From Minisyncoccota bacterium (lineage in GTDB: Bacteria; Patescibacteriota; Minisyncoccia; Phycocordibacterales; UBA9973), in assembly GCA_035510575.1 (NCBI GenBank), contig DATKGV010000012.1, positions 7,596-71,595 on the forward strand: a stretch of DNA of 64,000 nt, read 5' to 3'. Each line of letters begins with the position of its first letter. Positions within the stretch are counted from its first letter, which is position 1. Made by a program: the position numbers and the translations under genes. The notes below the pieces were generated by a model. That model saw only the letters and a list, made by a program, of their open reading frames with translations. It ran no database searches and had not been told where the DNA came from. This document shows, piece by piece, positions 25,002 to 54,410 of the stretch.

Positions 25002-26066
25002 CTATTTTTGACTTTTAATTGCAAGTAAGCAAAGTTTATAGAGAATTCTTGCGCCAACATTGCCGTCCCATTCGCCTTCTTTACCCGGAGCAACTTCACA
25101 CAAATCAAAACCGATTATTTTCTTTTTTGAAGCTATAAGCTTTTCAAATAAGAACGTCATTTCTTCTATCGAAAATCCTCCGGGCATTGGCGTGCCGGTA
25201 TTTGGGCATAAATATGGCAGAAGTCCATCTATGTCAAAAGATATATAGACATTATCTGGCAAAGTTTTAATAATTTTATCGCAAACTTTTGCCCAACTAC
25301 TGCCATTAAAAATTGATTTTTTTATTTCATAATCAGTGAATATAGTCACGCGATTTTTATTTGCCTCGGCAAATTTAATTTCAGCCTCGCAACAATCTCT
25401 TACGCCAATCTGCGTAAGTTGGCTGATATTCTTAATTTTAAGAGCATTAAAGAATATTGAGGCATGAGAGTATTTCAATCCCTCATAAGCATTTCTCAAA
25501 TCGCAATGCGCGTCTATATGCAAGATTCCGAAAGATTTATATTTTTCCGAAAGCGCTTCTAGGTATCCAAGCGGCACGCTGTGATCTCCGCCGACTACTC
25601 CCGCAATTTTGCCTTCATCAAGCAATTTGGCGGTATTTTCCTTAATTGATTCTTTCAATAACAGACACTCTTTGTTTATATACTTTTGCAGATCTTTATT
25701 TACACGGCCGTCAGAATATTCGCCTAAATACTTTTCTGCCTTCTCTCTGACTTGTTTGTTTTTATAAAATATATCTGCTGGTATTTCCTGCATGGCAATT
25801 CCCATTCTCCATCCATCGGGCAAGATTGGATCATATAGATCAATTTGTTGGGAAGCGTTCAGTATTGCTTCCGGACCTTTAGATGCGCCTGTTTTATAAG
25901 AAACAGTTGCTTCCCAAGGAATTGGCACAAGTACTGCTTCCGATTCAGCCGGCAAGAATGGCAAGCCGAAAATACCGTGATCACGCAGGCCGTTTTCATT
26001 CGGATTAAATTTGGCAATTTTTTCTTTACGCGCCTTTTCTCTATTTTTTGAATTATTTTTTGTCAT
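25002..26066 (-). CDS. speB: Agmatinase (arginase/ureohydrolase family).
   Basis: Metal-binding motifs GGDHS, DAHCD, SFDIDGL. Confidence 0.75.
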   Translation of the reverse strand: MTKNNSKNREKARKEKIAKFNPNENGLRDHGIFGLPFLPAESEAVLVPIPWEATVSYKTGASKGPEAILNASQQIDLYDPILPDGWRMGIAMQEIPADIFYKNKQVREKAEKYLGEYSDGRVNKDLQKYINKECLLLKESIKENTAKLLDEGKIAGVVGGDHSVPLGYLEALSEKYKSFGILHIDAHCDLRNAYEGLKYSHASIFFNALKIKNISQLTQIGVRDCCEAEIKFAEANKNRVTIFTDYEIKKSIFNGSSWAKVCDKIIKTLPDNVYISFDIDGLLPYLCPNTGTPMPGGFSIEEMTFLFEKLIASKKKIIGFDLCEVAPGKEGEWDGNVGARILYKLCLLAIKSQK

Positions 26067-26067
26067 T

Positions 26068-27336
26068 TTAAGACAATCTCTCTTTGAAATCCTTATAGCC
26101 GAATTTCTTTATAATTTTAATCTTACCCCCGCCTGCTCCCGAACTATCGTGAGGGCGGGCAGGTTTTTTTATTATAGCAATTGAAGGAAGATTTATGCCA
26201 TTAAAAGTATTGTTCTTAACCATCGTATAAATGGCCATGTTTAAGAAAATTATTTTTTGCCCGATAGTTGAAGGTTGTGGAAAAGAGTAATCTCCTATAA
26301 CATCTCCAGTCAAACAGCTCGGGCCGACTAAGCGATAAATGTTCACATTTCCTTCTGTAGCTGATTTAGCGCCAAGAATAGTTGGTAAATAAGGCATTTC
26401 CAAGACGTCAGGCATATGAGTAGTGGCCGAGACGTCTATTACAGCGATATTCATATTATTTTTTGTTATATCAACTACGCTGCCTATTAAAATGCCAGCA
26501 TTAAGTGCTATGGCTTCACCCGGCTCTAAATAAACTTGCAAGTGCGGATATTGGGCTTTAAAATCCATGATTATCTTATTAAGAAGCGCAATATCATAGT
26601 CCTTGCGCGTAATATGATGCCCGCCGCCGAAATTAACCCATTTCATCCGAGGCAAAAATTCGCCGAATTTTTCTTCAAATACTTTAAGCGTACGCTCTAG
26701 TGCATCAGCATTAAGCTCGCAAAGATTATGAAAATGAAGGCCGTCTATGCCATCCAAATTATTTGATTCAAAATTCGTTTTGGTCACGCCGAAATGGGAA
26801 TTAGGCCTGCTTGGGTCATACATAGGATTTTCCGTTTCGCTATGTTCCACATTTACCCTGATTCCGCAAGAAATTTTCTTTTTAGAATTTTTAATAACAT
26901 TCTTAAATTTATTCCATTGCGAAAATGAATTAAAAACCATATGATCAGCGTATCTGACATATTCTTTCATATTTTCTTTAGTATATGACGGAGAAAAGAC
27001 GTGGACTTCCCCGCCGAATTTTTTATATCCTAGACGCGCTTCATTTACTGAACTTGCTTCGCTTCCTGTAAGATATTTTTTGATCAATGGGAAAACGGAA
27101 AACATAGAAAAACTTTTCAGCGCCATTATGATTTTACAGCCGGTTTTTTCTTGAACGGAAGAAAGTATTTTAAGATTATGTTCCAATCTTTCCTCGCTCA
27201 CCACATAACAGGGCGTTTCAACATCAGAAAAATCCTGCGCATTCCAGCCCTCTTCATCTACCCAAGGTTCAATAAACATATTTTCTTTTTTATCAGGCAT
27301 TTTAATTTTAATTTTTGATGCTACAAACTCTGCCAT
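26068..27336 (-). CDS. nspC: Carboxynorspermidine/carboxyspermidine decarboxylase (PLP fold III), with a repeat-encoded C-terminal extension.
   Basis: NspC-like alignment throughout: KSFSMF...NFGGGHHI...EPGEAIA...GPSCLTGDV. C-terminal tail IKKPARPHDSSGAGGGKIKIIKK is encoded by repeat A copy 2. Confidence 0.8.
   Translation of the reverse strand: MAEFVASKIKIKMPDKKENMFIEPWVDEEGWNAQDFSDVETPCYVVSEERLEHNLKILSSVQEKTGCKIIMALKSFSMFSVFPLIKKYLTGSEASSVNEARLGYKKFGGEVHVFSPSYTKENMKEYVRYADHMVFNSFSQWNKFKNVIKNSKKKISCGIRVNVEHSETENPMYDPSRPNSHFGVTKTNFESNNLDGIDGLHFHNLCELNADALERTLKVFEEKFGEFLPRMKWVNFGGGHHITRKDYDIALLNKIIMDFKAQYPHLQVYLEPGEAIALNAGILIGSVVDITKNNMNIAVIDVSATTHMPDVLEMPYLPTILGAKSATEGNVNIYRLVGPSCLTGDVIGDYSFPQPSTIGQKIIFLNMAIYTMVKNNTFNGINLPSIAIIKKPARPHDSSGAGGGKIKIIKKFGYKDFKERLS
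26125..26170. repeat. GC-rich repeat family A, copy 2 (reverse complement of copy 1), at the 3' end of nspC.
   Basis: CCCCCGCCTGCTCCCGAACTATCGTGAGGGCGGGCAGGTTTTTTT. One mismatch relative to copy 1. Confidence 0.8.
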
Positions 27337-27351
27337 GGCAGAGTTTGTAGC
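27320..27351. promoter_or_regulatory. Perfect 32-bp palindrome GCTACAAACTCTGCCATGGCAGAGTTTGTAGC centred on the nspC start codon.
   Basis: The minus-strand ATG at 27334-27336 sits in the central CCATGG. The arms would form a 14-bp stem sequestering the AUG, or a dyad-symmetric operator. Confidence 0.7.
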
Positions 27352-27362
27352 ACTTCGTTATT

Positions 27363-29030
27363 TTAATAAACTTCCTGTTGATAACACTTCTCGCAATATA
27401 TGGTTTCTGGTCGATCTGGAGAGTAGGTTGTCTCAAATTCATTCAAACAATCTTTTTTCATACACTTCCTATGCCAAAGCTTGATGGGATTTCTTTTGGA
27501 CATTCTTTCTTTGTGACGACATTCAAAATCTTTGTGAGGTGAAGGCAGATGCATTCTTTTATAAAAATCTAATTCTGCTTGTATTAGTCTGAAGTTCTTG
27601 TTGCATTCTTCACAGACCAAAATTTCATTTGTTAGATTATCTACAACATCCTCTGGCATATTTGGTATTTCACCTTTTTTAATAGTTTCTTTTCCATAAG
27701 TACCAGTCGCTTTATCTTGCCATTTGTATCCTCTTTTCATTGTTTCATCTTTATTAAGAGGAAAGAAGTCTTGAATTAGTGATTCATTATAAGCAAAAGG
27801 CGCAACTTCTGGCGGAAAGAATTGTCCAAATATGTCTTCTTTTTTGAATTGTTCCTCAATTTTTTCTTTTAAATTAAAATATTCTTCTTTTGAATATTCC
27901 TTGTTCAAGATCATATAGTTACCTTTTCTAATAGAAATACATCCTATGGCATTTGATAAATGGTGGCAATTATCACAATACTCAACTTCATTACAATAAA
28001 ACACAAAAGCTGAATTTTTAAGTCTACTACCTTCAAGAGCACCCATAATATTGTATCCGAATTCAGGTTTATAATAATAATTATTACAATCCCAACTATC
28101 TATTGGTTTTTCGGTATCTTTCATATAAGAACAATTTTTTGAATCATAAGTATCAAAGAGCATTACTCCTTCATGACAATTATGAAGATAGTCTCCGGTT
28201 ACATTATGACATTTTGTTTGTGTGGAAAATTTTACGATAGTTTCCTTTTTTAATTTTTCAAATTCTTTTTTGGCGTTTTCTATACTTTCATAATCTTTTA
28301 AAATTTCAGATTTTTTCTTATCATATTCTTCTTTACTATATTTAATATTAAAAATTGAATTAGATATATTCATTCCATTTACGCAGAAAATACAATTATT
28401 TGAATTGTGAGTGTTGTAACAGAATAACAAATCACTAGACGACTGACATTTTTCACAAAACATGCATTTAAAACATTTACGACTATCTATGCATTCATAA
28501 CATAATTCTGATTCATGAAGAAAGGCGCAGTCTACGCACTGCTTGTCTCTTTGCATTAGTCTCCCATATAGACAATCTTCATTATAATCAGAAGCGAAAA
28601 TCAGATAGCAATCTTTATTTTCAGCTGATCCATTTGTATAATCGCTTCTAACATTTTGTATAGCCACAAGACCAAGCCTAGGTACTTCAAGTTGTAATTC
28701 TCTATATTGTTCAAAAAAAGTTTTAGAAAAATCATAATCTTTTGCAAAACTTTTTGGATCCCAATCATCACTCCACCAACATTTACTACAATATACTTTA
28801 TATGGAGATTCTGGATCATAAAGTGTAATCATATCTTTTTTACATAAATCGCACGGTCTTTTATATAAGATTCTTTCGTTTCGAAAGAGTAGACGTCTAG
28901 CCATTCGGCATTCTGGACAATAAAGCGGTGAAGCTGTTTTCATTTGTTCATAAAAAACAAGGTCTTCAGGTCTAATAATGAAGTCTTGTTTGCAAGTCCG
29001 GCACACTTTTTTTTCTGATTGGTATTTCAT
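27363..29030 (-). CDS. Cys-rich multi-zinc-ribbon protein (paralog A) of a family I do not recognise, embedded in the polyamine operon.
   Basis: 555 aa with at least 10 CxxC pairs. N- and C-terminal modules resemble each other (CxxC..F.I...D..FY....P..CP.CR..R...RN...LYKR.C). Identical C-terminal YSPDRPExIYCEKCYQQEVY to the paralog at 48195..49982. Confidence 0.7.
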   Translation of the reverse strand: MKYQSEKKVCRTCKQDFIIRPEDLVFYEQMKTASPLYCPECRMARRLLFRNERILYKRPCDLCKKDMITLYDPESPYKVYCSKCWWSDDWDPKSFAKDYDFSKTFFEQYRELQLEVPRLGLVAIQNVRSDYTNGSAENKDCYLIFASDYNEDCLYGRLMQRDKQCVDCAFLHESELCYECIDSRKCFKCMFCEKCQSSSDLLFCYNTHNSNNCIFCVNGMNISNSIFNIKYSKEEYDKKKSEILKDYESIENAKKEFEKLKKETIVKFSTQTKCHNVTGDYLHNCHEGVMLFDTYDSKNCSYMKDTEKPIDSWDCNNYYYKPEFGYNIMGALEGSRLKNSAFVFYCNEVEYCDNCHHLSNAIGCISIRKGNYMILNKEYSKEEYFNLKEKIEEQFKKEDIFGQFFPPEVAPFAYNESLIQDFFPLNKDETMKRGYKWQDKATGTYGKETIKKGEIPNMPEDVVDNLTNEILVCEECNKNFRLIQAELDFYKRMHLPSPHKDFECRHKERMSKRNPIKLWHRKCMKKDCLNEFETTYSPDRPETIYCEKCYQQEVY

Positions 29031-30281
29031 TTAATAATCTTTTTTAAGCGCAGGTGGAACATCTTTAAGTTTTTTAACTGTCCAAGTTAATCCTGTCTTT
29101 GCCATTTCGTCCAAGAATATTTTTGAATCAAGCGATTCATCTTCAGTATTCTTGACTCCTGTGCCCTTCCATTTGCCTTGTAAGACAAGTTTGGCGCATG
29201 TAACCGTCGGAATGGCTGTAGTGTAGCCGATAGCATTGCCGCCGGTTTCCTTGAAAGCGCTCTCGTGGTCGCAGACATTATAAATGTAAACAACTTTTTT
29301 CTTGCCATCTTTGATGCCTGAAATAATATTGCCGATATTAGTCTTGCCTTTATAACTTTTATTGAAATCCTCGCCCTTTGGAAGTATGGCTTTCAAGAAT
29401 TTAACTGGAATAATGGATGTGCCTTGGTAATCTATAGGATCAATTCTGGTAAGCCCGACATTGTAAAGTACGCGCAAATAAGTCAAATATGTCGTTGAAA
29501 ATGTCATCCAAAAGCGAATTCTCTTCAAATCCGGCATGTGAGTCGGTATTGTCTCCATTTCTTCGTGATACATGAGATATGGGGTAAATCTGCCCGCTTC
29601 TGGAAAATCAAAATCAATATGCGAGGCATCTTCGTCGATAAGGCGCCCTCTCTCCTGCCATTTGCCGTTTTTCCAGAACTTAATCGGCAGGATTAGTTCG
29701 CGCAAATTTATTTCCGGGTCGAAATTCGGAGCAAATTTTATTTTCTTGTCTTTTGATCCGCCGTTGCAGTCCAATATGTCAATTGTGTAAACTTTATCAA
29801 AAAGATAATCGCGCGCGTAAGCCGAGAAAATATTTGAGACCCCAGGATCAAAACCGCAGCCGGTTATGGCAAGCAAATTTTTATTTTTAAAATCTTTGTC
29901 TTTGGCAAGCTGTTTGGCGTAAGAAAAGCCGTATTTATCCGGATGCTCATAGCAAGCGGTGTCTATATAGTTGACGCCATATTCCAAACAGGCATCCATG
30001 ACTTTCAAATTATCATAAGGACTTCCCCAATTTACGACAAGTCTGGGATTTACTTCTTTCAGAAGTTTCAGAAGGAATAAATCCTCGCTGACATCGCCCC
30101 GATGGATATGCAAATCCACTTTGCCGTTTGTTCTTTTTTTTATTGAATCCCTGACAGCTTCGCATTTGGCAAGCGTCCGCCCGACGACATGAATCTCGGA
30201 AAAAATATCCGGATATTGGGCCATCTTATGCAAGCCGACGCTGCCGACATTCCCGCATCCGATTACAAGTATTTTAGACAT
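29031..30281 (-). CDS. Carboxynorspermidine dehydrogenase/synthase (saccharopine dehydrogenase-like).
   Basis: N-terminal Rossmann ILVIGCGNVGS. SDH-like core. Stop abuts the start of paralog A. Confidence 0.8.
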   Translation of the reverse strand: MSKILVIGCGNVGSVGLHKMAQYPDIFSEIHVVGRTLAKCEAVRDSIKKRTNGKVDLHIHRGDVSEDLFLLKLLKEVNPRLVVNWGSPYDNLKVMDACLEYGVNYIDTACYEHPDKYGFSYAKQLAKDKDFKNKNLLAITGCGFDPGVSNIFSAYARDYLFDKVYTIDILDCNGGSKDKKIKFAPNFDPEINLRELILPIKFWKNGKWQERGRLIDEDASHIDFDFPEAGRFTPYLMYHEEMETIPTHMPDLKRIRFWMTFSTTYLTYLRVLYNVGLTRIDPIDYQGTSIIPVKFLKAILPKGEDFNKSYKGKTNIGNIISGIKDGKKKVVYIYNVCDHESAFKETGGNAIGYTTAIPTVTCAKLVLQGKWKGTGVKNTEDESLDSKIFLDEMAKTGLTWTVKKLKDVPPALKKDY

Positions 30282-30357
30282 AAAATAAGTTTACTATCGC
30301 CACCCCTATAAGTCAATAAATAATCTTTGATTTTCGGCTTAAATGTTATATATTTAA

Positions 30358-31680
30358 GTGGTTATGGCACGAAAAATTATAATAAATAAATTCGGCGGAG
30401 GAATACTGACTAAAAAATTCATTCCGTTGATTAAGGAGCGTTTGAATGAGCAAATAAAAGCAGGTTATATGCCTGTCATTGTCGTTTCAGCAATGCATGG
30501 AATTACTGATGAAATAATCAAGTTTCTAAATAATAAAAAAATATCAGATCAATCAATTAGAGTGTTTATAAAAAATCTTAGAGATATGCATGATCAAATA
30601 ATGGCAAATATGGGTGTTAAAGTTAATTTGCAAGAAATATTTTCTAAGTTAAGGACTGTCCTTGAGGAGGCCCTCTTAAGGACAGTCCTTGCACCCGCAG
30701 ACGAAGATGAAATAGTTTCTTATGGAGAGAAATTATCGGCAGCTATTTTAACTTCTTATTTAAGCGACCTTAAATTGCCGGTAAAGAAATATTTAGCAGA
30801 AGAAATACCTATAATAACTGATGATAATTTCAAGAATGCAAATATTTTATATAAGGAATCGGAAAAAAATGTTCAAAATAAATTTCTCAATTTAAAAGAA
30901 ATACCAATTATTCCAGGTTTTACCGGCATAACTAGAGACGGGCAAACTACGACGCTTGGCCGAGGAGGCACTGATACGACTGCTTGCTTCATCGGATCTG
31001 CTCTTCAAGCTCGCAATATAATTTTATGGAAAGACGTGGCAGGCGTGTTTTCAGCCGATCCTAAAATAGTTCCCAAGGCGCGCACAATACCGTATATAAG
31101 CTACAGAGAAGCCGAGGAATCCGGCAAAGTCATTCATGAAAAAGCCATTCAATATGTTAAAATGTTTAAAACCCCGATTGAAATAACTTATATCGCAAAT
31201 CCCAAATTAAAGACAAAAATTGGCAAAATTATGGATCAGCAAAAAGGCGCCAAGATAGTCAGCTTCAAAAAAGATCTGGCTCTGATTATTATTACTGATG
31301 AAACTGCAAAAATAACGGAGCTTCTATATGAGACGAGCCGAATTTTTTCCAAATACAAAGTTGATATGATACTTATCAGCAATACCCGTTACAGCTTGCA
31401 AATCGTGGCTGATAATAACAACGGATTGCTCGATAAAGTTATTGGCGAATTAAAAGGCAACTTTTCTAAAATTGAAATTTCCAAGGTTAACATGTTTTTC
31501 TTAGTCGGCAATTTTAACGTCAAAGATGTGAATGATTTCAATGATATTTTAATCAAGCATAAAACCGGCCTCCAAATCAGCGCCTTCCTTTATGAGAATT
31601 GCACTCGGCTTGAAGCAGTGGTTAAAAGTGATAAGGTTGAAGATATTATTAGAGTTCTATATAAGAAATTTATTAAATAA
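30358..31680 (+). CDS. lysC: Aspartate kinase.
   Basis: Amino-acid kinase N-terminus IINKFGGGIL. C-terminal ACT-like region. Contains an in-frame nested palindrome encoding LRTVLEEALLRTVLA. Confidence 0.85.
   Translation: MVMARKIIINKFGGGILTKKFIPLIKERLNEQIKAGYMPVIVVSAMHGITDEIIKFLNNKKISDQSIRVFIKNLRDMHDQIMANMGVKVNLQEIFSKLRTVLEEALLRTVLAPADEDEIVSYGEKLSAAILTSYLSDLKLPVKKYLAEEIPIITDDNFKNANILYKESEKNVQNKFLNLKEIPIIPGFTGITRDGQTTTLGRGGTDTTACFIGSALQARNIILWKDVAGVFSADPKIVPKARTIPYISYREAEESGKVIHEKAIQYVKMFKTPIEITYIANPKLKTKIGKIMDQQKGAKIVSFKKDLALIIITDETAKITELLYETSRIFSKYKVDMILISNTRYSLQIVADNNNGLLDKVIGELKGNFSKIEISKVNMFFLVGNFNVKDVNDFNDILIKHKTGLQISAFLYENCTRLEAVVKSDKVEDIIRVLYKKFIK
30650..30692. repeat. Nested palindromic insert in lysC (TAAGGACTGTCCTT-GAGGAGGCCCTCTT-AAGGACAGTCCTT).
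   Basis: Two self-complementary 13-mers, AAGGAC(T/A)GTCCTT, flanking a GC-rich core. Encodes the duplicated peptide LRTVL. Confidence 0.65.
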
Positions 31681-31681
31681 A

Positions 31682-32770
31682 ATGAAAATATTTAATGTTG
31701 GAATTCTTGGCGCTACGGGCATGGTCGGACAGAATTATATTCGCCTTCTGGAAAATCATCCGTGGTTTAAAGTTGTCTATCTGGCAGCTTCAGCCAATTC
31801 CGCCGGCTATAAATATCATGAGGCGGTTTCAAGCAGATGGCACATGGCATCGCCTATTCCAGCAGATGTGAAAAATATTATTGTAGAAGATGTGGCTAAT
31901 GTGGATAAAGCTAGAACAAAATGTGATTTTGTCTTTTCAGCTTTTGAACTTCCAGATAAAAAATTAGTCAAGGAAATAGAAGAGAAATATGCAAGCGTCG
32001 GACTGCCGGTCATATCTAATGCTTCTGCAAATAGAAATACTGATGATGTTCCAATGATTATTCCAGAAATTAATACTGAGCATTTGGAGATGATTCCAAT
32101 TCAGCAAAAAAATCACGGCTGGAAAAAAGGTTTTATAGTTGTGAAGCCGAATTGCAGCTTGCAAAGCTATCTTCTGCCGATTTTCGCCTTGATTCAGGCC
32201 GGTTATCCTGTTAAAAAAATACTTATTACCACTCTTCAAGCTGTTTCCGGAGCGGGCTATCCGGGAGTTGCAAGCTTGGATATTTTAGACAATGTTATAC
32301 CTTATATCGGCGGCGAGGAAGAAAAAACCGAAAACGAACCGCTGAAAATTTTAGGCCAGATTAAAAGCAAAAAGTTTGTTAATGCCGAAGATATTGCAAT
32401 CTCAGCGACTTGTACAAGAGTGCCGGTATCCGACGGTCATTTGGCAGCAGTCAATATTTTATTCGGGGCAAGCAAACCAACTAAAGAAGAAATAATAAAA
32501 ATTTGGACAGAATTTAAATCTTTACCACAAAATTTGAAACTGCCTTTTGCTCCTAAAAACCCGATAATTTATCTTGAAGAAGAAAATCGTCCACAACCGA
32601 AATATGATCGTGACACAGATAAAGGCATGGCTGTAACTGTCGGACGCTTAAGAGATTGCAGTATATTCGACTATAAGTTCGTATCTTTAAGCCATAATAC
32701 CGTTCGCGGAGCCGCCGGAGGAGGAATCCTAAACGCCGAACTTTTAGTTAAAAAGGGGTATATAAAATAG
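31682..32770 (+). CDS. asd: Aspartate-semialdehyde dehydrogenase.
   Basis: N-terminus VGILGATGMVGQ. Catalytic Cys region KPNCSL. Start taken at MKIFNVG, immediately after the lysC stop. Confidence 0.85.
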   Translation: MKIFNVGILGATGMVGQNYIRLLENHPWFKVVYLAASANSAGYKYHEAVSSRWHMASPIPADVKNIIVEDVANVDKARTKCDFVFSAFELPDKKLVKEIEEKYASVGLPVISNASANRNTDDVPMIIPEINTEHLEMIPIQQKNHGWKKGFIVVKPNCSLQSYLLPIFALIQAGYPVKKILITTLQAVSGAGYPGVASLDILDNVIPYIGGEEEKTENEPLKILGQIKSKKFVNAEDIAISATCTRVPVSDGHLAAVNILFGASKPTKEEIIKIWTEFKSLPQNLKLPFAPKNPIIYLEEENRPQPKYDRDTDKGMAVTVGRLRDCSIFDYKFVSLSHNTVRGAAGGGILNAELLVKKGYIK

Positions 32771-34153
32771 TTACCAGCCGAATTCTTTGCCGACATCATC
32801 TGGAGTTTCTCTTTTGCTAGCCACAACAATATGTCCATTCTCGACAATAATTTTCATTGGAGAAGAAAGCATGCAGTGTTTAGCTGCCAGAGAATCTTCA
32901 TAAGCTCCTGTATCATAAACAACAAGATACATTGACTCGTTGCCGCCATTAACATCAAAATCTGGCAACATTATTACTCCATTTTTACCCTTATAGACAT
33001 CATCTGAATCGCAGCTAGATCCTGCCAGCCAAACTTCAGTTAAATTATTATCATTTTTATTGTTTACTGGAGAAAGCGCCCATTTTTGTTCTATGGCCCA
33101 CGTATCAAGAAGGTCGTTCATAAAACTGCCATCTATCACATACCACTTCTTAGCTGGACATTTTTTATAATTAATAATTTTTGTGTCTATTATTTTAAAT
33201 ACTGTAATTTGCGCTGGCGCTACCATGTATCTGCCCCACTCGCAAATTAGATTAGGATGAGGAACTCCCCTTTTTTCAGATTCTCGTTTGAGCAGTTCTA
33301 AAATTTTTTCCATTAATTTATCTGTCGAATAACCTTTAGTTCTTGTATATGGTATGGGCATGCCGCCTCCAATATCCAGAGTATCAAGAGATGGATTCTT
33401 TTCTTTTAATTTAAAATATACATCAAGGGCATATTTAATAGGAACAATAACATCAGATAATTTTTCTATTTGTGATCCTATATGATAGTGAATAATTTTC
33501 AAATTCTTAAATGATTCCATTTTGAGAATTTCTTTTGCTGAAAATCCGAAACGATCAATCGGCTTATTCCAATAAGAACTGGTTTTTACCGGCATATCAA
33601 GCCGGAGGCCGACGTCAAATTTAGAATATTGAAATGGTTTGAGTTCGTTCGGCCCCTCGATTATCGGAATTATTTTTAATCCCCGATGCTGAAGCTCATC
33701 TATCAGATTTATATATTTATCAGTTTTTGGACCGCTGCAAAGAACGCGAATGTTTGGATTGAAAGTTTCTTGTTCAAGCATTTTCTTCACTAGCCATAAT
33801 TCATTATAGGAAGAAGTTTCCAAGTGTGCTCCTTCGCCAACTATGGACATAACAACTTCTTTGGTTTGATTAACTTTCATCGGATAATGATAATAAAACT
33901 TGCCTTTATATCCCAACTTTTTCGACAGCATAACAGTCAAATCAAGCATATCTTCTATTCGCTCTTCAATCACAAAAGGCATCAAAATTTCTAGTGATGT
34001 TCCAAACTTCTCCGCCAAGTAGCGGACGTTGTATATATTATGGCCTTCTTTGATTATTAAATCCCCTTCATTATTGAAATCAAAATATTGAGTGTTGAAA
34101 TCATTTATGCCGAGCTTCCATAATTTTCTGGAAGCGATTGAACGTTTATTCAT
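32771..34153 (-). CDS. PLP-dependent fold III decarboxylase, arginine/ornithine decarboxylase-like.
   Basis: PLP-lysine region YPMKVNQ. LDIGGGMP. CEWGRYMVAPA (EPGR-like). SSCDSDD. Confidence 0.65.
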   Translation of the reverse strand: MNKRSIASRKLWKLGINDFNTQYFDFNNEGDLIIKEGHNIYNVRYLAEKFGTSLEILMPFVIEERIEDMLDLTVMLSKKLGYKGKFYYHYPMKVNQTKEVVMSIVGEGAHLETSSYNELWLVKKMLEQETFNPNIRVLCSGPKTDKYINLIDELQHRGLKIIPIIEGPNELKPFQYSKFDVGLRLDMPVKTSSYWNKPIDRFGFSAKEILKMESFKNLKIIHYHIGSQIEKLSDVIVPIKYALDVYFKLKEKNPSLDTLDIGGGMPIPYTRTKGYSTDKLMEKILELLKRESEKRGVPHPNLICEWGRYMVAPAQITVFKIIDTKIINYKKCPAKKWYVIDGSFMNDLLDTWAIEQKWALSPVNNKNDNNLTEVWLAGSSCDSDDVYKGKNGVIMLPDFDVNGGNESMYLVVYDTGAYEDSLAAKHCMLSSPMKIIVENGHIVVASKRETPDDVGKEFGW

Positions 34154-35409: not shown

Positions 35410-37302
35410 TTATTTCTTCTCTGGATTTTCGTTTACTTCAGCGTCTTTGATTTCTTCGCCTTGAGCTTCTGGAGTTGCTGGTGCGCCTTCTTGCGGAGCG
35501 TTCTTGCTCATAGCTTCGCCAATTTTTGAAACTTCAGTTGTAAGAGCTTCGAGTGCAGTTTTAATTGCTTGCAAGTCAGTGCCGTCTTTGGCTTTCTTCA
35601 CATCGGCAATTTTGCCTTCTACGCTTGTCTTAAGTTCAGTCGGAATTTTATCGCCGTATTCTTTAAGCGATTTTTCAGATGAAAAGATTATCATTTCCGC
35701 CGTATTTTTCTCATCAACCAATTCCTTCTTCTTGGCATCCTCATCAGCATGAGCTTCGGCGTCATCTTTCATTTTCTTTATATCGGCATCAGTAAGACCA
35801 GATGAGGCCTCAATGCGGATTGATTGCTCCTTACCCGAAGCTTTATCTTTAGCTTTAACATTTAAGATTCCGTTGGCATCAACATCAAAAGTCACTTCTA
35901 TCTGCGGCATGCCTCGAGGGGCCGGCGGAATGCCATCTAGAATAAACCTGCCGAGTGACTTATTATCGGATGCCATCGGGCGCTCGCCTTGCGTAATATG
36001 AATTTCCACGGATGTCTGATTATCAGCGGCAGTTGAGAACACTTGGCTCTTTGAGTTTGGAATTGTCGTATTGCGTTCAATAAGCTTGGTAGCCACTCCG
36101 CCAAGCGTTTCAATGCCGAGCGATAGCGGTATGACGTCAAGAAGAAGGACATCTTTAACATCGCCTTGAAGGACTCCAGCTTGAACAGCCGCGCCGAGCG
36201 CCACAACTTCATCCGGATTAATGGAACGGTTCGGCTCTTTGCCGTTGAACAATTTCTTGACTTCTTCAACAATTTTAGGCATGCGCGTCTGTCCGCCAAC
36301 CATGATAATTTCATTAATTTCATTCATCTTGAACGGCGAGACCTCCATTGCGCGCTTTGAAATCTCTATCGATCTCGTAATATATTCTTCAGCTAGCGAC
36401 TCAAGCGTGGCGCGAGTCATTTTCATAAGAAGATGCTTCGGGCCCGATGCATCGGATGTGATAAACGGAATATTAATTTCTGTTTCCGGCGTGGTTGAAA
36501 GTTCAATCTTGGCTTTTTCAGCGGCTTCATCAAGGCGCTGAAGCGCCAGCGGATCTTTAGTGACATCTATGCCTGATTCTTTTTTATATTCAGCCGCAAT
36601 CCAATTGATTATTTTCTGATCTATATCACGGCCTCCCATGTGCGAGTCGCCGTCGGTGGATTTCACTTCTATAACATCGTCTGAGACCTCAAGCACGGAA
36701 ATATCAAATGTTCCGCCTCCGAAATCGTACACAACTATCTTTTCATTTTTCTTGGTATTAAATCCATAAGCAAGAGCGGCCGCTGTCGGCTCATTTATAA
36801 TTCTCTTTACATCGAGACCGGCAATTGCTCCGGCATCTTTGGTGGCTTTTCTTTGCGCGTCATTGAAATATGCTGGCACGGTAATAATAGCTTCAGTGAT
36901 TTTCTCGCCAAGCTTGGCTTCAACATCGGTCTTAATCTTTGAGAGAATCATGGCTGAAATCTCTTCCGGACGATACCATTTATTGCCGATATTCACTTCA
37001 ACTCCGCCGTCAGTTCCTTTCTGAATTTTGAACGGCGCCGTTTTTTGCGATTTCTGGATTTCCGGATCGTCAAACATGTGGCCCATGAATCGCTTGATGC
37101 CGTAAATAGTATTCTGCGGATTTGTCACCGCCTGGCGCTTGGCAAGCAAACCGACAAGGCGATCGCCATTCTTGGCAATTGCGACAATCGACGGAGTTGT
37201 TCGTCCGCCTTCAATATTTTCTATAATCTTCGGCTGCCCTCCTTCTATAATCGCAACCGCGCTATTTGTTGTACCCAAGTCAATACCAATTATTTTTGAC
37301 AT
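35410..37302 (-). CDS. dnaK: Chaperone DnaK (Hsp70).
   Basis: [21 protein letters not shown]. Start taken at MSKIIGID. An in-frame ATG 15 nt upstream is also possible. Confidence 0.92.
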
Positions 37303-37335
37303 ATATTTGTTTAGCATAGCAAATTATTTATTTCT

Positions 37336-37369
37336 GAATGGTCTGGTGAGAAAGTCCGAGGACCTGAAG
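37336..37369. repeat. Repeat family B, copy 1 (TGAATGGTCTGGTGAGAAAGTCCGAGGACCTGAA), in the dnaK 5' leader.
   Basis: A second copy at 50198-50231 is identical at 32 of 34 positions. Confidence 0.75.
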
Positions 37370-37423
37370 AAATATATAATTTGCGAAGCGTTTTTAATTA
37401 ATAATTTTTAATTTATAGAAGCA

Positions 37424-37451
37424 TTATATACTACTCTTTTATTTTTGACAA
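37424..37451 (-). promoter_or_regulatory. Sigma70-type promoter for dnaK: -35 TTGTCA, 16-bp spacer, -10 TATAAT.
   Basis: Minus-strand reading gives cTTGTCAaaaataaaagagtagtaTATAATg, about 100 nt upstream of the dnaK ATG. Confidence 0.6.
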
Positions 37452-37483
37452 GTATTTCGTGGTCGCGAGATACTTGTATATTG
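37445..37483 (+). promoter_or_regulatory. Divergent promoter for the regulator gene: -35 TTGACA with an extended -10 TGtTATATT. It overlaps the inverted repeat ACAAGTAT-N14-ATACTTGT (37448-37477).
   Basis: The -35 hexamers of both promoters share the near-palindromic TTGACAA. A second IR, ATGTCAA-N14-TTGACAT, lies at 37509-37536 in the leader. Confidence 0.45.
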
Positions 37484-37563
37484 GTAATATAATTGATAAT
37501 ATATGGGCATGTCAACCCCGTAGTAGATTTTGACATTTAAAAGGGGTTTTCATTATAAAATAT

Positions 37564-38109
37564 ATGTCAAAATTCACTACAGGGTCAAGTAAAAGCGACT
37601 ATTCCAAGAAAATATTGAAGATTTTGGCTGAAAAACCGGCAGTTTCTGTTATGGAACTTGTAGATAGGGCTTTAGGCGCTCAGATAGCGCCTAAAGCCCT
37701 ATCTACGTATGCCCTTACACGCTCGCTAAAAGGCCTTACAGAGGCAGGATTTGTTGAGAGCGTATCATCGGGTCAAAACGAATACGCGCGTCTTACAAAC
37801 GAAGGCAAGCGCAAGGCCTATAGCATAAAACTGGAATCCGGACTTGTTTCAACGAAATGGGACGGCTATTGGCGAATGATTATGCTTGATCTGCCAGAAG
37901 AACGCAAAAGCGAACGCGAGGCGCTTCGCTATCTGCTCAAAAAGGCCGGATTTGTCTGTGTTAAAAATTCTGTCTGGGTGTCTATGTACCCATATGAGAA
38001 TCTTTTCATAAATATTAAAAAAGATCTCGGTCTTACAACCGAGATGATGATACTCGTCACAGATAAAATTGACGAAGAAACAGAGAAAGAATTAATTAAG
38101 ATGTTTTAA
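37564..38109 (+). CDS. Small winged-helix regulator with a PaaX_C-like C-terminal domain.
   Basis: N-terminal wHTH ILKILAEKPAVSVMELV. C-terminal WDGYWRMIMLDLPEERKSEREALRYLLKKAGF...NSVWVS resembles the PaaX C-terminal domain. Located between grpE and dnaK. Confidence 0.45.
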   Translation: MSKFTTGSSKSDYSKKILKILAEKPAVSVMELVDRALGAQIAPKALSTYALTRSLKGLTEAGFVESVSSGQNEYARLTNEGKRKAYSIKLESGLVSTKWDGYWRMIMLDLPEERKSEREALRYLLKKAGFVCVKNSVWVSMYPYENLFINIKKDLGLTTEMMILVTDKIDEETEKELIKMF

Positions 38110-47692: not shown

Positions 47693-48115
47693 TTACTTTA
47701 ACCTATCATAATGATACCCTTCTTCTTCTCTTTTTCTCGTTTGTTCTTCTGTTTCTGTTATATATTTTCCCTTGCCTGTTAATGTATTTTCAACCCAAAG
47801 AAAATATGGCGGGGTTGTCATTGAAATATCGGATCTCACTATCATTGGAATATTATACGAGTGTTCTGTTTCTATATGTTTAATAAGCTTGTCGCTTAAT
47901 ATTTTCGTGGTTGCAAGCATTAGCATGCATTGGCCAATTTCTCGTATGACATTGTTCCATGGATATATTGAATTAACCATCCAATAATCCGCAGAAGTGG
48001 CCAACTTTTCTTCTATGGCGGAATAACCTATTGCTCTCGCCTCTTCCATATCCATGCAAGTCGTATAAACAAAAACGATTTCTTTTGACTCTTTTTCTAC
48101 TTTTTCAAAAATCAT
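47693..48115 (-). CDS. cutA: Divalent cation tolerance protein CutA.
   Basis: VYTTCMDMEEARAI...LATSADYWMVNSIYPW...NIPMIV aligns with the CutA1 fold. Confidence 0.65.
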   Translation of the reverse strand: MIFEKVEKESKEIVFVYTTCMDMEEARAIGYSAIEEKLATSADYWMVNSIYPWNNVIREIGQCMLMLATTKILSDKLIKHIETEHSYNIPMIVRSDISMTTPPYFLWVENTLTGKGKYITETEEQTRKREEEGYHYDRLK

Positions 48116-48194: not shown

Positions 48195-49982
48195 TCAATA
48201 AACCTCTTGCTGGTAACATTTCTCGCAGTATATAATCTCTGGTCGGTCTGGTGAATATGATGTTTCAAACTCTATGTCACAGTTATTATTTCCGTGAAAA
48301 TGACTTGTCTTGTCACACATACACTTCCTATGCCAGAGTTTCATAGGATTACGCATTTTTAATCTTTCTCTATGACGACAAAAGAAACATAGATGTGGCA
48401 ATGGCACTTTTAATTTTTTATACAAATTTAATTCATCTTCTATTACTTTAAAGGCCTTCCGGCAATAAATATTATTTTCATTTACATTTTCGCATTCTAT
48501 AATTTCTCTAATTATTTCATCAGAAACGTCATTTAGTTTATCCGGCAAATCTTTTGCTTTTATAGTTGCTTTATATTCATTTACTTGCCTCTCTCGCCAT
48601 TTATAACCTTCTTTTAATATCTTCTCTTTTGTTTTAGGAAAATAATCTTGAGCAACTGTTTCATTGTAGGCAAATGGTGAAAGTTCTACTGGAAAAAATT
48701 CTCCATATTTATAAATAATCTTATTTTTATCAACATAAGGAATATTCATCATTTGCTGTTTTATTTTTGAAACGAGTTTTTCATATTCATCTTTTGAATA
48801 TTGTTTATTTAAAATACAATATTTTTTATTTCTTAAGCCAAGACAGCCAAATAGGTTAGAACAGCCATAACAATTAAAGCAATATTCTATTTCATTTGAA
48901 CTATATACAACACTAGTAAAAAGATTGCGGTAATTTCCTATTCCAGTGTCAAAAATTTCATAAGTCAATTCTGCTAATCCTATTCCAGGACCAGAATCAT
49001 AACCATCTTTTACATCTTTTTCTAGCCAATGAGAATATTTACAATCTTCTATATTGCCCTTTGCATCAAAACAAAATTTGCAATTTTTTGTTCCCTCAAG
49101 ATTATCGCCGATAGAATTAACTGTTTTTATATGGATAGCAAAGCGATGTAATGACTTTAAATACAATTCTTTGAAATTTTTTTTGAGCTCTAAAATTATT
49201 TTATAATCTGTTAAATCCAATTCAGCCAGACGATGATTATACTCTTCTTTAGACAGTTGCTTATTCCACATACAATAGGACTTGCTTCGAAGATTACTGC
49301 AACCAAAACAATTTACACAGCCATGACAATCATATAAAAAATAAGAGTCGACACAATTTTTGCAGTTTAAAGAATATAAAAGATGGTAACAATCTGAACA
49401 AATAACATCATCATAACAAAGTTCTGCATCATTAACTACATAAAGATCGGAAGAATCTTTAATTCTTGAAATCCGATTCGAATAAAAAGTTTGTTCAATT
49501 TGCCAAGAACCAGATGACATGTAACTGTTTCTACTTTCCTCAGCAATATTACAATAATCACTATTCGTAGCATTGCTATTTGAAAGAATTTGGAGGGGAA
49601 ATTGATTCATTAGATTTTTCCATTGCTTAAAAAATGGTTCAGAAAAATCATAATCACGCCCATAAAACATTGGGTCCCATTTATCTCCCCACCAATATTT
49701 TATATCATAAACTATGAGATTTTCATCTGGAGGATAAAGAGAAATTAAAGTTTCATTATGATCGGGAGCATTGCATTTCCTCTTAAAAAGAGACATCTCA
49801 TTTCGCCAGCATAATCTTCTTATCGTTCTGCATTCCGGACAAAAAGTTGGTGGAGGAACTTTAATTTTCTCATAAAAAGAAAAGTCGTCCGGCTCAATAA
49901 TAAAGTTTTGCTTACAGTTTTGGCATATTCTAGTTTCTGAATTCATATTCAGAATTATGCCACAATACCTCCGCCTAGGCAA
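48195..49982 (-). CDS. Cys-rich multi-zinc-ribbon protein (paralog B).
   Basis: 595 aa. Same architecture and identical C-terminal motif as 27363..29030. Overlaps the mnmA 3' end by 28 nt. Confidence 0.7.
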   Translation of the reverse strand: MPRRRYCGIILNMNSETRICQNCKQNFIIEPDDFSFYEKIKVPPPTFCPECRTIRRLCWRNEMSLFKRKCNAPDHNETLISLYPPDENLIVYDIKYWWGDKWDPMFYGRDYDFSEPFFKQWKNLMNQFPLQILSNSNATNSDYCNIAEESRNSYMSSGSWQIEQTFYSNRISRIKDSSDLYVVNDAELCYDDVICSDCYHLLYSLNCKNCVDSYFLYDCHGCVNCFGCSNLRSKSYCMWNKQLSKEEYNHRLAELDLTDYKIILELKKNFKELYLKSLHRFAIHIKTVNSIGDNLEGTKNCKFCFDAKGNIEDCKYSHWLEKDVKDGYDSGPGIGLAELTYEIFDTGIGNYRNLFTSVVYSSNEIEYCFNCYGCSNLFGCLGLRNKKYCILNKQYSKDEYEKLVSKIKQQMMNIPYVDKNKIIYKYGEFFPVELSPFAYNETVAQDYFPKTKEKILKEGYKWRERQVNEYKATIKAKDLPDKLNDVSDEIIREIIECENVNENNIYCRKAFKVIEDELNLYKKLKVPLPHLCFFCRHRERLKMRNPMKLWHRKCMCDKTSHFHGNNNCDIEFETSYSPDRPEIIYCEKCYQQEVY

Positions 49983-51139
49983 ATATCTTTGTCATATACT
50001 ACAATTGATTGACCAGAATCAACTAAAACATCATTATCAAAGGTTACTCTAGCTTCTTTATCCGAAATAATTTTTATATGACAGTTTAGTAATTCTCCAT
50101 GATAGCGAATTTGCGCAGTATATATTTTATTTTTGTCCGGAAGCTCATTTATCCAATTTGTATTATTAATAATTAATGAGCTAAAAAATTCTTTTTTTGA
50201 ATGGTCTGGTGAGTTAGTCCGAGGACCTGAAAAAAATGAATTATTTGGCGAATTTAAAACTGTAATTGTATTTTCTTTTAAATTTTTTGAAACAACATAA
50301 AGAGGCCTATTTTCGGAAGATTTTTCAGTAATCGTAAATCCATGCCTTTCGCCTAAAGTGAAAAATATTGCTCCATCATGAGTGCCTATAACTTCCTCAT
50401 TTTCATTCAGAACATTTCCCTTTTTTGATTCTATATAATGCTTTAGAAAATCTTTCATATCAAGTGGCCCTAAAAAGCAAACACCTTGACTATCTTTTTT
50501 AACTGCCGTAGGAAGCTTATATTTCTTTGCAAGTTTACGAACTTCTGTTTTCTTTAAATGTCCAATTGGGAAAAGTATATGTTCTAAATCTTTCTGAGTA
50601 AGAGTCCACAAAAAATAACTTTGATCTTTTGATGAATCAGGACTTTGTTTTAAAAAGTATTTTTCCTCCCCTGCTAAGGGGAGGTGGTCTTTAGACCGGA
50701 GGGGTGCACCCCCTCGTCTTTCAGACACTCCCCCTTCGCAGGGGGAGAAAAAAACTTTAGCATAATGTCCAGTTGCAATAAAATCTGCTCCATGACTTTT
50801 TGCAAAATTCCAAAATACACCAAACTTCACTTCGCGATTGCACATGACATCTGGATTGGGAGTATGGCCCTTTTTATATTCTTCTATCATATAGAGAGCC
50901 ACATTCTTCTTATATTCTTCCTCCGCATTACACTCCAAAAACGGAATGTTTAAATGGGCGCAAACTTTCATGGCGTCGCGCCGTTCATTTCGCCAAGAGC
51001 ATTCTATGAAGTCCGGCGTCCATGTGCGTATAAAAACTCCGACGACATTATAGCCTTGGTCTTTTAAAAGCGCGGCGCTGACTGAAGAATCTACGCCTCC
51101 GGAAACGCCGACAAACACTGTTTTATTATTTTTATTCAT
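49955..51139 (-). CDS. mnmA: tRNA-specific 2-thiouridylase MnmA carrying two in-frame repeat-derived inserts.
   Basis: PP-loop VGVSGGVDSSV. GHYA...DQSYFL. The insert SPCEGGVSERRGGAPLRSKDHLPLAGEE is encoded by a GC hairpin triplet. The insert FFSGPRTNSPDHSKKEFF is encoded by repeat B. Confidence 0.85.
   Translation of the reverse strand: MNKNNKTVFVGVSGGVDSSVSAALLKDQGYNVVGVFIRTWTPDFIECSWRNERRDAMKVCAHLNIPFLECNAEEEYKKNVALYMIEEYKKGHTPNPDVMCNREVKFGVFWNFAKSHGADFIATGHYAKVFFSPCEGGVSERRGGAPLRSKDHLPLAGEEKYFLKQSPDSSKDQSYFLWTLTQKDLEHILFPIGHLKKTEVRKLAKKYKLPTAVKKDSQGVCFLGPLDMKDFLKHYIESKKGNVLNENEEVIGTHDGAIFFTLGERHGFTITEKSSENRPLYVVSKNLKENTITVLNSPNNSFFSGPRTNSPDHSKKEFFSSLIINNTNWINELPDKNKIYTAQIRYHGELLNCHIKIISDKEARVTFDNDVLVDSGQSIVVYDKDICLGGGIVA
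50198..50231. repeat. Repeat family B, copy 2, in frame in mnmA.
   Basis: TGAATGGTCTGGTGAGTTAGTCCGAGGACCTGAA, compared with copy 1 at 37336-37369. Confidence 0.75.
50664..50747. repeat. Array of three GC-rich hairpins in frame in mnmA.
   Basis: CCTCCCC-TGCTAA-GGGGAGG. GAGGGG-TGCA-CCCCCTC. CTCCCCC-TTCGCA-GGGGGAG. Confidence 0.75.
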
Positions 51140-54258: not shown

Positions 54259-54376
54259 TTTATTGGGACGATTTAAACATGCCGATTAGGATTGCAATAA
54301 ACAAAAGACCGACTAGGATTATCACAATATTTATAATACCGCGATTGCGCATGCCGTCATTATATCACAATTAAGT

Positions 54377-54410
54377 AATAAAATATCCCCGTCGATGGGG
54401 ATATTTTATT
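54377..54410 (-). terminator. Perfect 34-nt palindrome forming a terminator that overlaps the stop of the HTH protein gene.
   Basis: AATAAAATATCCCC-GTCGAT-GGGGATATTTTATT. The minus-strand hairpin is followed by a T-rich run. Confidence 0.6.

Follow-up and report, generated by a model that had tools for sequence, protein, structure and literature searches.

What are the two extremely cysteine-rich proteins that a Minisyncoccota bacterium encodes inside housekeeping operons, and do those operons reveal what the proteins do? Both genes lie in a 64,000-nt stretch of contig DATKGV010000012.1 (assembly GCA_035510575.1; the whole stretch is hereafter the window), and a sequence-only reading of it had described them as recently duplicated or gene-converted paralogs with a hinted link to polyamine metabolism, tRNA thiolation or metal handling. 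We favor another explanation, held at somewhat less than even confidence, in which the two proteins, A and B, are anciently diverged members of a very large uncharacterised family of the Patescibacteria (candidate phyla radiation, CPR) and would serve as Zn-stabilised adaptors or scaffolds working with an orphan ATPase. The descriptive part of this explanation is far more secure than the adaptor mechanism, which we infer. The two genes are as follows.

27363..29030, minus strand: paralog A, 555 aa, a highly conserved A-type family member
48195..49946, minus strand: paralog B, 583 aa from the ATG at 49946, a B-type family member

ORF A was found exactly where it had been placed. ORF B had been given as 595 aa over 48195..49982 (minus strand), a span that exists as an open reading frame (ORF) opening with a TTG at 49982; the ATG at 49946, located 8 nt past the mnmA stop, is the start in all B homologues. 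This agreement among the homologues indicated that the proposed overlap of mnmA and B is probably not real and that B most likely begins at this ATG and is 583 aa long. With 36 Cys (6.5%) and 13 CxxC pairs in A, and 34 Cys (5.8%) and 12 CxxC pairs in B, the two proteins stood far above the window median of 0.58% Cys (49 ORFs), the next richest protein reaching 2.3%.

Full-length alignment of A and B gave 39% identity (E = 2e-133), and the N-terminal module of one paralog aligned to the C-terminal module of the other at 30% (E = 5e-11), indicating that the terminal modules represent an internal duplication. Both the paralogy and the duplicated modules of the earlier proposal were thus upheld, and the C-terminal motif, which had been called identical, matched at 19 of the last 20 residues. 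The recent origin fared differently. A and B belonged to separate orthologue groups in Paceibacteria-type metagenome-assembled genomes, with A-type identities of 68–87% and B-type identities of 60–73%. The DNA identity of about 75% noted at the 3′ ends was reproduced over the last 60 nt (80%) and 90 nt (73%), and dropped to 60% over 120 nt and 40% over 300 nt. Where A and B share a residue, the same codon was used at a frequency of 0.47 in the last 20 aa versus 0.61 gene-wide, and this lower agreement attributed the 3′ similarity to purifying selection on the peptide. The synonymous differences in this codon analysis were saturated, which ruled out recent gene conversion there. Judged from their sequences, A and B are true paralogs that diverged anciently.

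To what do these paralogs belong? A profile search of 1.84 billion cluster representatives returned 4,727 clusters (50% identity) at E ≤ 1e-3, of which 2,093 passed E ≤ 1e-30; the best 150 of the 4,727 matches were nearly all full-length proteins of ~530–610 aa. The named sources were nearly all Paceibacteria-type or Gracilibacteria-type CPR, with a few other labels; among the sources found, the family is seen in Patescibacteria only. A scan of species-representative genomes supplied 65 loci, from Paceibacterota, Nomura-, Lipton-, Harrison-, Staskawicz- and Jorgensenbacteria, Peribacteria and Gracilibacteria, with a few records under other or mis-binned labels, and a metagenome scan supplied 80 more (574 of 599 candidate stretches confirmed); individual loci are numbered below with the prefix L. 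Together the 145 loci carry ~335 family genes, at least two copies in 81 loci and up to nine in a row, and 378 of the 383 family and ATPase genes share their strand, the median distance between neighbors being 63 nt. The A-type genes were solitary in 29 of 30 loci. Outside the window, the B-type gene was the first gene of an array: it preceded another paralog in all four cases and was itself preceded by a long ATPase gene, of the kind described below, in two of them. A phage origin was tried and rejected, with one partial match in 2.9 million viral contigs; viral models matched just a small Zn-ribbon part of the protein.

We modelled A with AlphaFold2. A first run with a 30-sequence alignment (predicted local distance difference test, pLDDT, 68) left the solenoid unresolved and was superseded by a run with 146 representatives of 50%-identity clusters, which gave a pLDDT of 90.3 and a predicted template modelling score of 0.91. 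In the resulting model, two pairs of treble-clef Zn fingers, resembling LIM tandems, appear to cap an acidic, internally duplicated β-solenoid. The predicted elements are listed below in the order of the protein, with A residue numbers.

28866..29030, minus strand: Zn finger 1, residues 1–55, a zf_Tbcl-type treble clef followed by an Arg-rich helix; predicted ligands C10, C13, C38 and C41
28761..28865, minus strand: Zn finger 2, residues 56–90, zf_Tbcl_2-like; predicted ligands C60, C63, C81 and C84
28338..28664, minus strand: β-solenoid half 1, residues 123–231, of 12-residue coils with the cap CxxCxNxxNxSxxIFNxxYSKEEY
28239..28337, minus strand: helical hairpin between the solenoid halves, residues 232–264, helices 233–243 and 247–262
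27897..28238, minus strand: β-solenoid half 2, residues 265–378, ending in the second cap copy (…GCISIRKGNYMILNKEYSKEEY)
27636..27896, minus strand: cap helix and acidic aromatic/Pro-rich linker, residues 379–465, GxFFPxxxxPFxYNE…FPL…GYxW
27477..27635, minus strand: Zn finger 3, residues 466–518, a second zf_Tbcl-type finger (C473, C476, C504) followed by a second Arg-rich helix
27366..27476, minus strand: Zn finger 4, residues 519–555, zf_Tbcl_2-type (C523, C528, C546, C549), with the near-invariant tail YSPDRPExIYCEKCYQQEVY

Residues 91–122, between finger 2 and the solenoid, formed short helices. The solenoid followed a period-12 layout with Cys or Ser at coil positions 1, 4, 7 and 10, and the DSSP strand pattern of the model supported a β-solenoid. 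Both halves are closed by a shared cap motif (…C.[NG]LR.K.YCI.N.QYSKEEY), in which the Asn residues N228 and N376 are equivalent and invariant; the repeated unit C.NC.GC.NL....K.YC..NKQYSKEEY described earlier was indeed present and corresponds to these caps, so that each protein has two copies. The hairpin separating the halves was the most variable region, with the highest mean column entropy (2.70). In the linker, G402, F404, F405, P406, Y414, N415, G434 and W437 were near-invariant. No signal peptide or transmembrane segment was detected in A or B (maximum Kyte-Doolittle value over 19 residues, 0.7–0.9), and both proteins are taken to be cytoplasmic.

The charge distribution raised the possibility of a nucleic-acid clamp, in which the treble-clef modules and Arg-rich helices would bind DNA or RNA, whether as partners of the DNA-dependent TrwB/HerA-type ATPase in the uptake, export or processing of DNA or alone as RNA chaperones. 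On an otherwise acidic protein, the 20-residue segments 39–58 and 502–521 carried mean net charges of +4.6 and +4.5, and R42, R46, R505 and R509 within the basic helices were near-invariant; treble-clef fingers often bind nucleic acid via the helix after the second knuckle. The ATPase encoded beside many family genes, moreover, has matches to Pfam's 'T4SS coupling protein DNA-binding domain' (T4SS, type IV secretion system) and to the HerA central domain. However, profile comparison revealed no homology to a characterised DNA- or RNA-binding finger in the PDB (E ≥ 0.01), LIM-like tandems are typically protein–protein modules, and the large acidic solenoid and linker (mean net charge of −5.7 for the linker region, residues 379–465) would repel nucleic acid. 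We therefore consider a clamp rather unlikely.

Which of the many cysteines hold metal was addressed by computing Cys conservation and presence correlation in 146 diverse sequences. The finger cysteines were either near-invariant (C10, C13, C38, C41, C473, C523, C528, C546 and C549) or lost as complete sets, being conserved at 84–100% or co-varying as units. The four cysteines of finger 1 were 98–100% conserved and those of finger 4 99–100%. Finger 2, which occurs in ~54% of the family members but is degenerate in B, showed a presence correlation of r = 0.99–1.0 for Cys 63, 81 and 84, and finger 3 one of r = 0.71–0.92 for Cys 476, 501 and 504. At family position 501, 80% of the members have Cys but A has Asp, for which H499 may substitute as the finger 3 ligand. 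In contrast, the solenoid cysteines were 16–85% conserved, were mostly Ser where replaced, and showed pairwise correlations of r ≤ 0.43. This pattern suggested that the terminal fingers alone behave as metal sites, amounting to a predicted four sites in A and, with its degenerate finger 2, three in B, and that the solenoid cysteines are not ligands but small residues that pack the core of a very narrow helix. The earlier count of more than ten CxxC pairs per protein stood, and most of these pairs are not metal sites.

Two metal-based classes were rejected on the same data. A 'metal wire' with one ion per coil held by four inward cysteines, or multiple Zn sites along the solenoid, conflicts with cysteines that do not co-vary and are often Ser; membership among metallothionein-like or metal-storage proteins was dismissed by the solenoid correlations (r ≤ 0.43 versus 0.71–1.0 for the finger cysteines). 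A broader role in metal handling had been among the earlier suggestions, and could take the form of buffering, storage or chaperoning of zinc or other thiophilic metals together with CutA1 and MgtC. In its favor are a Cys content tenfold above the window median and the position of B ahead of genes for CutA1 and MgtC, the former at the following coordinates.

47693..48115, minus strand: CutA1-family gene directly downstream of B (Pfam CutA1, 69 bits)

CutA1 homologues also recurred inside or beside arrays at seven loci (for example L028, L037, L052, L097, L110, L114 and L129), and to that extent the suggestion survived in part. Storage ligands, however, should be kept, whereas the solenoid cysteines are individually dispensable and behave unlike metal ligands, and the function of CutA1 is itself unresolved; we regard metal handling as an improbable function of the family.

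Is the architecture that of any described protein? Pfam gave A and B sub-threshold matches only, to zf_Tbcl (PF13451; 21.1 bits in A, at residues 9–46 of finger 1, and 15.7 bits in B versus a cutoff of 24), and no match to zf_Tbcl_2 (PF23477) at E ≤ 1 (cutoff, 27 bits), for which the motif CxxC-x(8-14)-P-x(3)-RPxxYCxxC was visible in finger 4 of both. Fingers 1 and 3 carry the zf_Tbcl signature CxxC…FxI…D/ExxFY…PxxCxxCRxxRR, and fingers 2 and 4 the zf_Tbcl_2 signature CxxC…(F/Y)xP…RPxxVYCxxC. Among 74 diverse relatives, 22 matched zf_Tbcl at E ≤ 0.01 (best, 4e-8) and 23 matched zf_Tbcl_2 (best, 2e-6), the latter at the position of finger 4; other Pfam matches were LIM and Med15_N, in one member each. 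A paralog in the L070 array reached 24.1 bits for PF13451. These Pfam entries are small uncharacterised 'probable treble clef' domains, however, and the fingers make up ~30% of A or B, leaving the solenoid and linker uncovered. Scans of A and B with NCBIfam and PADLOC gave no match, and PHROGs gave one weak match, to phrog_15341, of uncharacterised function. A PDB sequence search with A returned nothing significant, and the PDB profile search yielded solely marginal LIM and C2H2 matches (E ≥ 0.01).

The closest structural relatives were weighed in the same way. With the N-terminal-module profile, the second knuckle of finger 1 together with finger 2 gave a marginal LIM-like match to CRP1 (E = 0.0099–0.014). 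LIM domains, such as those of avian CRP1 (PDB 1CTL and 1B8T), likewise place two treble-clef-type Zn sites in tandem at a similar spacing, and as protein-docking modules they fit an adaptor role. However, they coordinate zinc by C2HC plus C4 sites as opposed to C4 plus C4 here, the present family is bacterial with fingers flanking a solenoid, and the match fell below the threshold for membership; with Pfam LIM found in 1 of 74 relatives (E = 0.0017), membership in the LIM domain was rejected. The top Foldseek matches in the PDB were the parallel β-helices of GlmU, LpxA/LpxD and γ-carbonic anhydrase, left-handed β-helix enzymes that differ in having 18-residue coils, [LIV]-G-x4 hexapeptides and trimeric active sites. 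A hexapeptide-repeat left-handed β-helix was rejected on the 12-residue period, Foldseek E ≥ 0.014, TM-scores of 0.07–0.10 and no Pfam Hexapep match. We also compared narrow β-solenoids, namely the ryegrass ice-binding protein (3ULT), the spruce budworm antifreeze protein (1M8N), Tenebrio-type 12-residue Cys-ladder helices, YadA/UspA1 heads and curli CsgA. These are secreted or surface proteins with 5–9% identity to the family, and their cysteines form disulfides or they present ice- or ligand-binding faces, whereas A and B are cytoplasmic, with interchangeable Cys and Ser and Zn-finger modules flanking the solenoid. Membership among antifreeze or ice-binding β-solenoids, a class of secreted proteins with a flat TxT/TxN ice-binding face and a disulfide-braced core, was likewise rejected.

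The earlier statement that the proteins could not be assigned to a characterised zinc-ribbon family was accordingly upheld, and the sub-threshold Pfam, absent NCBIfam and PADLOC, and absent PDB sequence matches leave them outside any characterised family. Literature searches directed at the family itself, at its finger motif and Pfam domain names, and at Cys-rich proteins of CPR found nothing specific. Treble-clef fingers and β-solenoids are known kinds of structure; their combination in this architecture and the gene neighborhood are absent from the family models, solved structures and papers found. We consider the finding categorically new at the level of the protein family and of a candidate system.

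If A and B are adaptors, what would they adapt? The arrays were recurrently accompanied by an ATPase gene of the VirD4/TrwB/HerA type (Pfam TrwB_AAD_bind, DUF87, T4SS-DNA_transf and TraG-D_C), which occurred in 39 of the 115 non-A loci, 27 times directly adjacent, whereas none of the 30 A-type loci had it (Fisher p = 3.7e-5). With 49 copies in 1.23 Mb, the gene was ~20-fold enriched over the ~2 type IV coupling protein (T4CP) homologues per patescibacterial genome reported previously (PMC12102498). In that study 148 of 5,713 patescibacterial T4CP homologues lay near virB4, and its authors suggested exaptation (PMC12102498). The ATPase family itself (TrwB_AAD_bind, K06915) is CPR-enriched and of unknown function, with 2,083 CPR genomes versus 30 other bacterial genomes carrying it (PMC6744442 supplement).

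The neighboring ATPases came in two forms. The long form (600–740 aa), represented by 21 of 51 neighboring ATPase ORFs, ends in a C-terminal finger, CSxCxKxTxVPFKPEPGRPVYCKxC, which is of the same type as fingers 2 and 4 of the Cys-rich family and which in L070 matched PF23477 at 34.4 bits (cutoff, 27). The short form (~485–520 aa) lacks the finger, and arrays were often bracketed by one long and one short ATPase (for example in L070). The usual partner of the ATPase beside family arrays was a membrane protein of ~450 aa without a Pfam match, which we call c11; the N-terminal part of the 824-aa phrog_5156 profile matched c11 and its C-terminal part matched the ATPase. In array loci L028, L037 and L040, c11 was preceded by a protein designated c29. 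Both have counterparts in the window.

52960..54258, minus strand: c11 membrane protein, 432 aa, 28–31% identical over its full length to c11 of array loci (tblastn)
54409..55440, minus strand: c29 protein with Sigma70_r4 and HARE-HTH domains (Pfam), 33–37% identical to other c29 proteins

Two further observations concern this neighborhood. A Sigma70_r4/HARE-HTH protein, c11 and a T4CP/HerA-like ATPase form a conserved CPR module (L028, L037, L040, L070, L077 and others), of which the window (52960..55440) keeps c29 and c11, with YceG/MltG, a methyltransferase and mnmA where the ATPase would sit. In the Nomurabacteria-like loci L070, L025 and L047, c11, a long ATPase, Cys-rich genes and a short ATPase are inserted between dnaK and dnaJ, with a PaaX-like regulator ahead; in the window (35410..38109) dnaJ directly adjoins dnaK, and the PaaX-like gene (37564..38109) is still present.

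We propose that the Cys-rich proteins, without being enzymes themselves, serve the VirD4/TrwB/HerA-type ATPase as Zn-stabilised adaptors or scaffolds, a link suggested by gene adjacency and by the common finger type. The terminal finger modules and the invariant C-terminal tail would dock on the ATPase, or jointly on a nucleic-acid or protein cargo, and the more variable surface of the solenoid and hairpin would confer paralog-specific binding. The copies in the window would have been displaced into unrelated operons, A into CANSDH/CANSDC (carboxynorspermidine dehydrogenase/decarboxylase) and B into mnmA/cutA, and would be merely co-transcribed there. Coupling proteins that work with adaptors have precedents, as Legionella DotL works with IcmS/IcmW/LvgA. 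Like a partner of VirD4 or TrwB, the Cys-rich family is encoded beside T4CP-like ATPases, shares a finger domain with them and has an invariant C-terminal tail. Type IV coupling systems nevertheless differ in that the patescibacterial ATPase is mostly an orphan far from virB4 and possibly exapted (PMC12102498), and known T4CP adaptors and effectors have no sequence or structural similarity to the Cys-rich family.

Several points weigh against this proposal. Adjacency to a T4CP-like gene was found for the family, in the 39 non-A loci, and was found neither for the window copies, the 64-kb window containing no such ATPase, nor for the A-type genes. The A-type, which is the most conserved subfamily, was never beside the ATPase, suggesting that at least A may act independently, and about two thirds of the non-A loci had no ATPase in the flanks examined. 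Several Asp, Asn and Tyr residues are near-invariant, so that a catalytic role is possible. As to sampling, the loci were collected with family-derived peptide patterns and do not constitute an unbiased genome survey, and gene counts came from high-scoring segment pairs of tblastn, so that a few frameshifted genes were possibly counted twice.

The same arrays could be read as translocated cargo, with the ATPase recruiting the paralogs via their C-terminal tail for delivery as effectors into the epibiont's host cell. Signals for T4SS usually lie at the C-terminus, which in this family is extremely conserved, and arrays of diverged paralogs directly adjoin the T4CP-like ATPases; tandem arrays of T4SS-related VirB2 pilins also occur in Patescibacteria (PMC12102498). 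Most patescibacterial T4CP homologues, however, are not near the virB4 channel genes (PMC12102498), the orthologues evolve slowly (60–87% identity) unlike typical effectors, and a protein of 555 aa that combines a β-solenoid with four Zn sites is a poor substrate for unfolding. Given also the lack of a signal peptide and the maximum Kyte-Doolittle value of 0.7–0.9, delivery as cargo appears distinctly unlikely.

A role in anti-phage defence was suggested by the match of the neighboring ATPase to PADLOC mad8 (E = 5e-14) and to HerA models, and by tandem diverged paralogs with conserved ends and a more variable middle, features that would suit diversified solenoid 'sensors' coupled to a HerA-like ATPase effector. 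A and B themselves lack a PADLOC match, however, the arrays showed neither a nuclease nor any other effector domain, the orthologues are conserved and not fast-evolving, and the ATPase family is near-universal in CPR, unlike patchy defence islands. Defence is thus very unlikely to be the function.

Do the operons of the window still inform on function? The stated gene neighbors of A and B were borne out by Pfam and by homologue names: A is flanked by a saccharopine-dehydrogenase-type CANSDH and a pyridoxal phosphate (PLP) decarboxylase, CANSDC, labelled carboxynorspermidine decarboxylase in several sources, and B by mnmA and CutA1. Of the stop/start abutments claimed, that of CANSDH with A stood, the TAA stop directly abutting the ATG of A, and that of mnmA with B, as noted, probably did not. 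CANSDC homologues are 395–405 aa long and the NCBI model of the window CANSDC has 403 aa, which places its start probably at M20 (nt 27279) and separates A from CANSDC by an 83-nt spacer.

An operon-based function, with A accessory to carboxy(nor)spermidine synthesis and B to tRNA 2-thiolation by MnmA, could cite the contact of A with the CANSDH stop, the 8 nt between mnmA and B, and the presence of mnmA near family members at two other loci (L035 and L058). Synteny contradicted it. CANSDH or CANSDC was found within 6–8 kb of a family member in 0 of the 145 loci, including the 30 A-type loci, and the two polyamine genes were directly adjacent in three related Paceibacteria (L152, L153 and L154; gaps of 118, 0 and 1 nt) without a family gene between them. 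These three share the synteny of the window, with DnaJ, an arginine/ornithine decarboxylase, divergent aspartate semialdehyde dehydrogenase (ASD) and aspartate kinase genes, CANSDH and CANSDC; agmatinase (L152 and L153) or agmatine-deiminase-pathway genes (L154) follow CANSDC, and CysS lies downstream in L152 and L154. An A orthologue of 81% identity has a TrmB-type regulator on one side and a LysM/M23 peptidase on the other, and the A-type loci recurred in this TrmB–LysM/M23 context or in an xth-murI…CCA-adding-enzyme neighborhood. L154 has a different family member (40% identical to A), which lies at the end of this polyamine operon beside CysS, and family members occur near CysS also in L043, L070 and L086. 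The L154 member and its proximity to CysS indicated that closeness to polyamine genes reflects regional synteny around dnaK-dnaJ…cysS, and the A-type insertion between CANSDH and CANSDC is lineage-specific. B-type orthologues follow the long ATPase or a TerC gene, and not mnmA. The hints of polyamine metabolism and tRNA thiolation therefore did not survive, and we hold an operon-based function to be barely credible; the displacement proposed above remains our preferred account of both placements.

Some features of these operons deserve record in their own right. At 25002..34153 of the window, a complete arginine-to-spermidine route is clustered in a reduced CPR genome. It comprises a gene for a PLP arginine/ornithine decarboxylase (32771..34153), those for ASD and aspartate kinase (30358..32770), CANSDH and CANSDC, and an agmatinase gene, whose place in L154 is taken by agmatine deiminase and N-carbamoylputrescine amidase. 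The spacer between A and CANSDC (27280..27362) contains a perfect hairpin with a 16-bp stem at 27319..27352 (center, GCCAUGGC; ΔG, −26.3 kcal/mol; z = −6.75 versus shuffles), located between the A stop and the probable CANSDC start; on the minus strand it precedes an A-rich, not U-rich, stretch. The 118-nt CANSDH–CANSDC spacer of L152, which lacks the Cys-rich gene, also has a 24-bp stem with a GC-rich loop, so that this junction seems prone to structured inserts.

A 33-nt dispersed repeat, TCAGGTCCTCGGACTnnCTCACCAGACCATTCA, occurs at 37335..37367 and 50198..50230 (both minus strand), with all 31 specified bases identical; one copy precedes the dnaK ATG by 18 nt, and the other is in frame in mnmA, encoding SGPRTNSPDHS. 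Chance would produce no such repeat, and the 154 other loci lack it; possible readings are a regulatory box and a small mobile element able to sit in coding sequence. The interior of mnmA (~50650..50760, minus strand) also contains a hairpin-rich, in-frame segment of GC content 0.62 versus 0.37 in the window, encoding roughly SPCEGGVSERRGGAPLRSKDHLPLAGEE, which looks like an insertion reminiscent of in-frame palindromic elements. A similar peptide, GPRPGGPDHSK, interrupts the CCA-adding enzyme in L012.

Patescibacteria comprise a large share of bacterial diversity, with genomes of ~1 Mb in which most lineage-specific proteins are unexplained. The family described here counts thousands of clusters, is conserved like housekeeping genes, and with up to nine 1.7-kb copies in a row occupies 1–2% of a genome. 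The placement of A and B is a reminder that a gene set tightly within an operon of one genome can give a misleading hint of its function. With this family, the near-universal orphan T4CP/HerA-like ATPase of CPR gains candidate partners, and the question of its exaptation becomes experimentally approachable. As a more speculative extension, to which we assign a low probability, the family, the long and short ATPases, c11 and CutA1 might form an undescribed, near-CPR-wide, membrane-associated machine that moves or processes DNA or protein without a canonical T4SS channel, the tandem paralogs serving as its cargo- or target-specific adaptors. If true, such a machine would explain the orphan T4CPs and a significant share of the coding capacity of ~1-Mb genomes.

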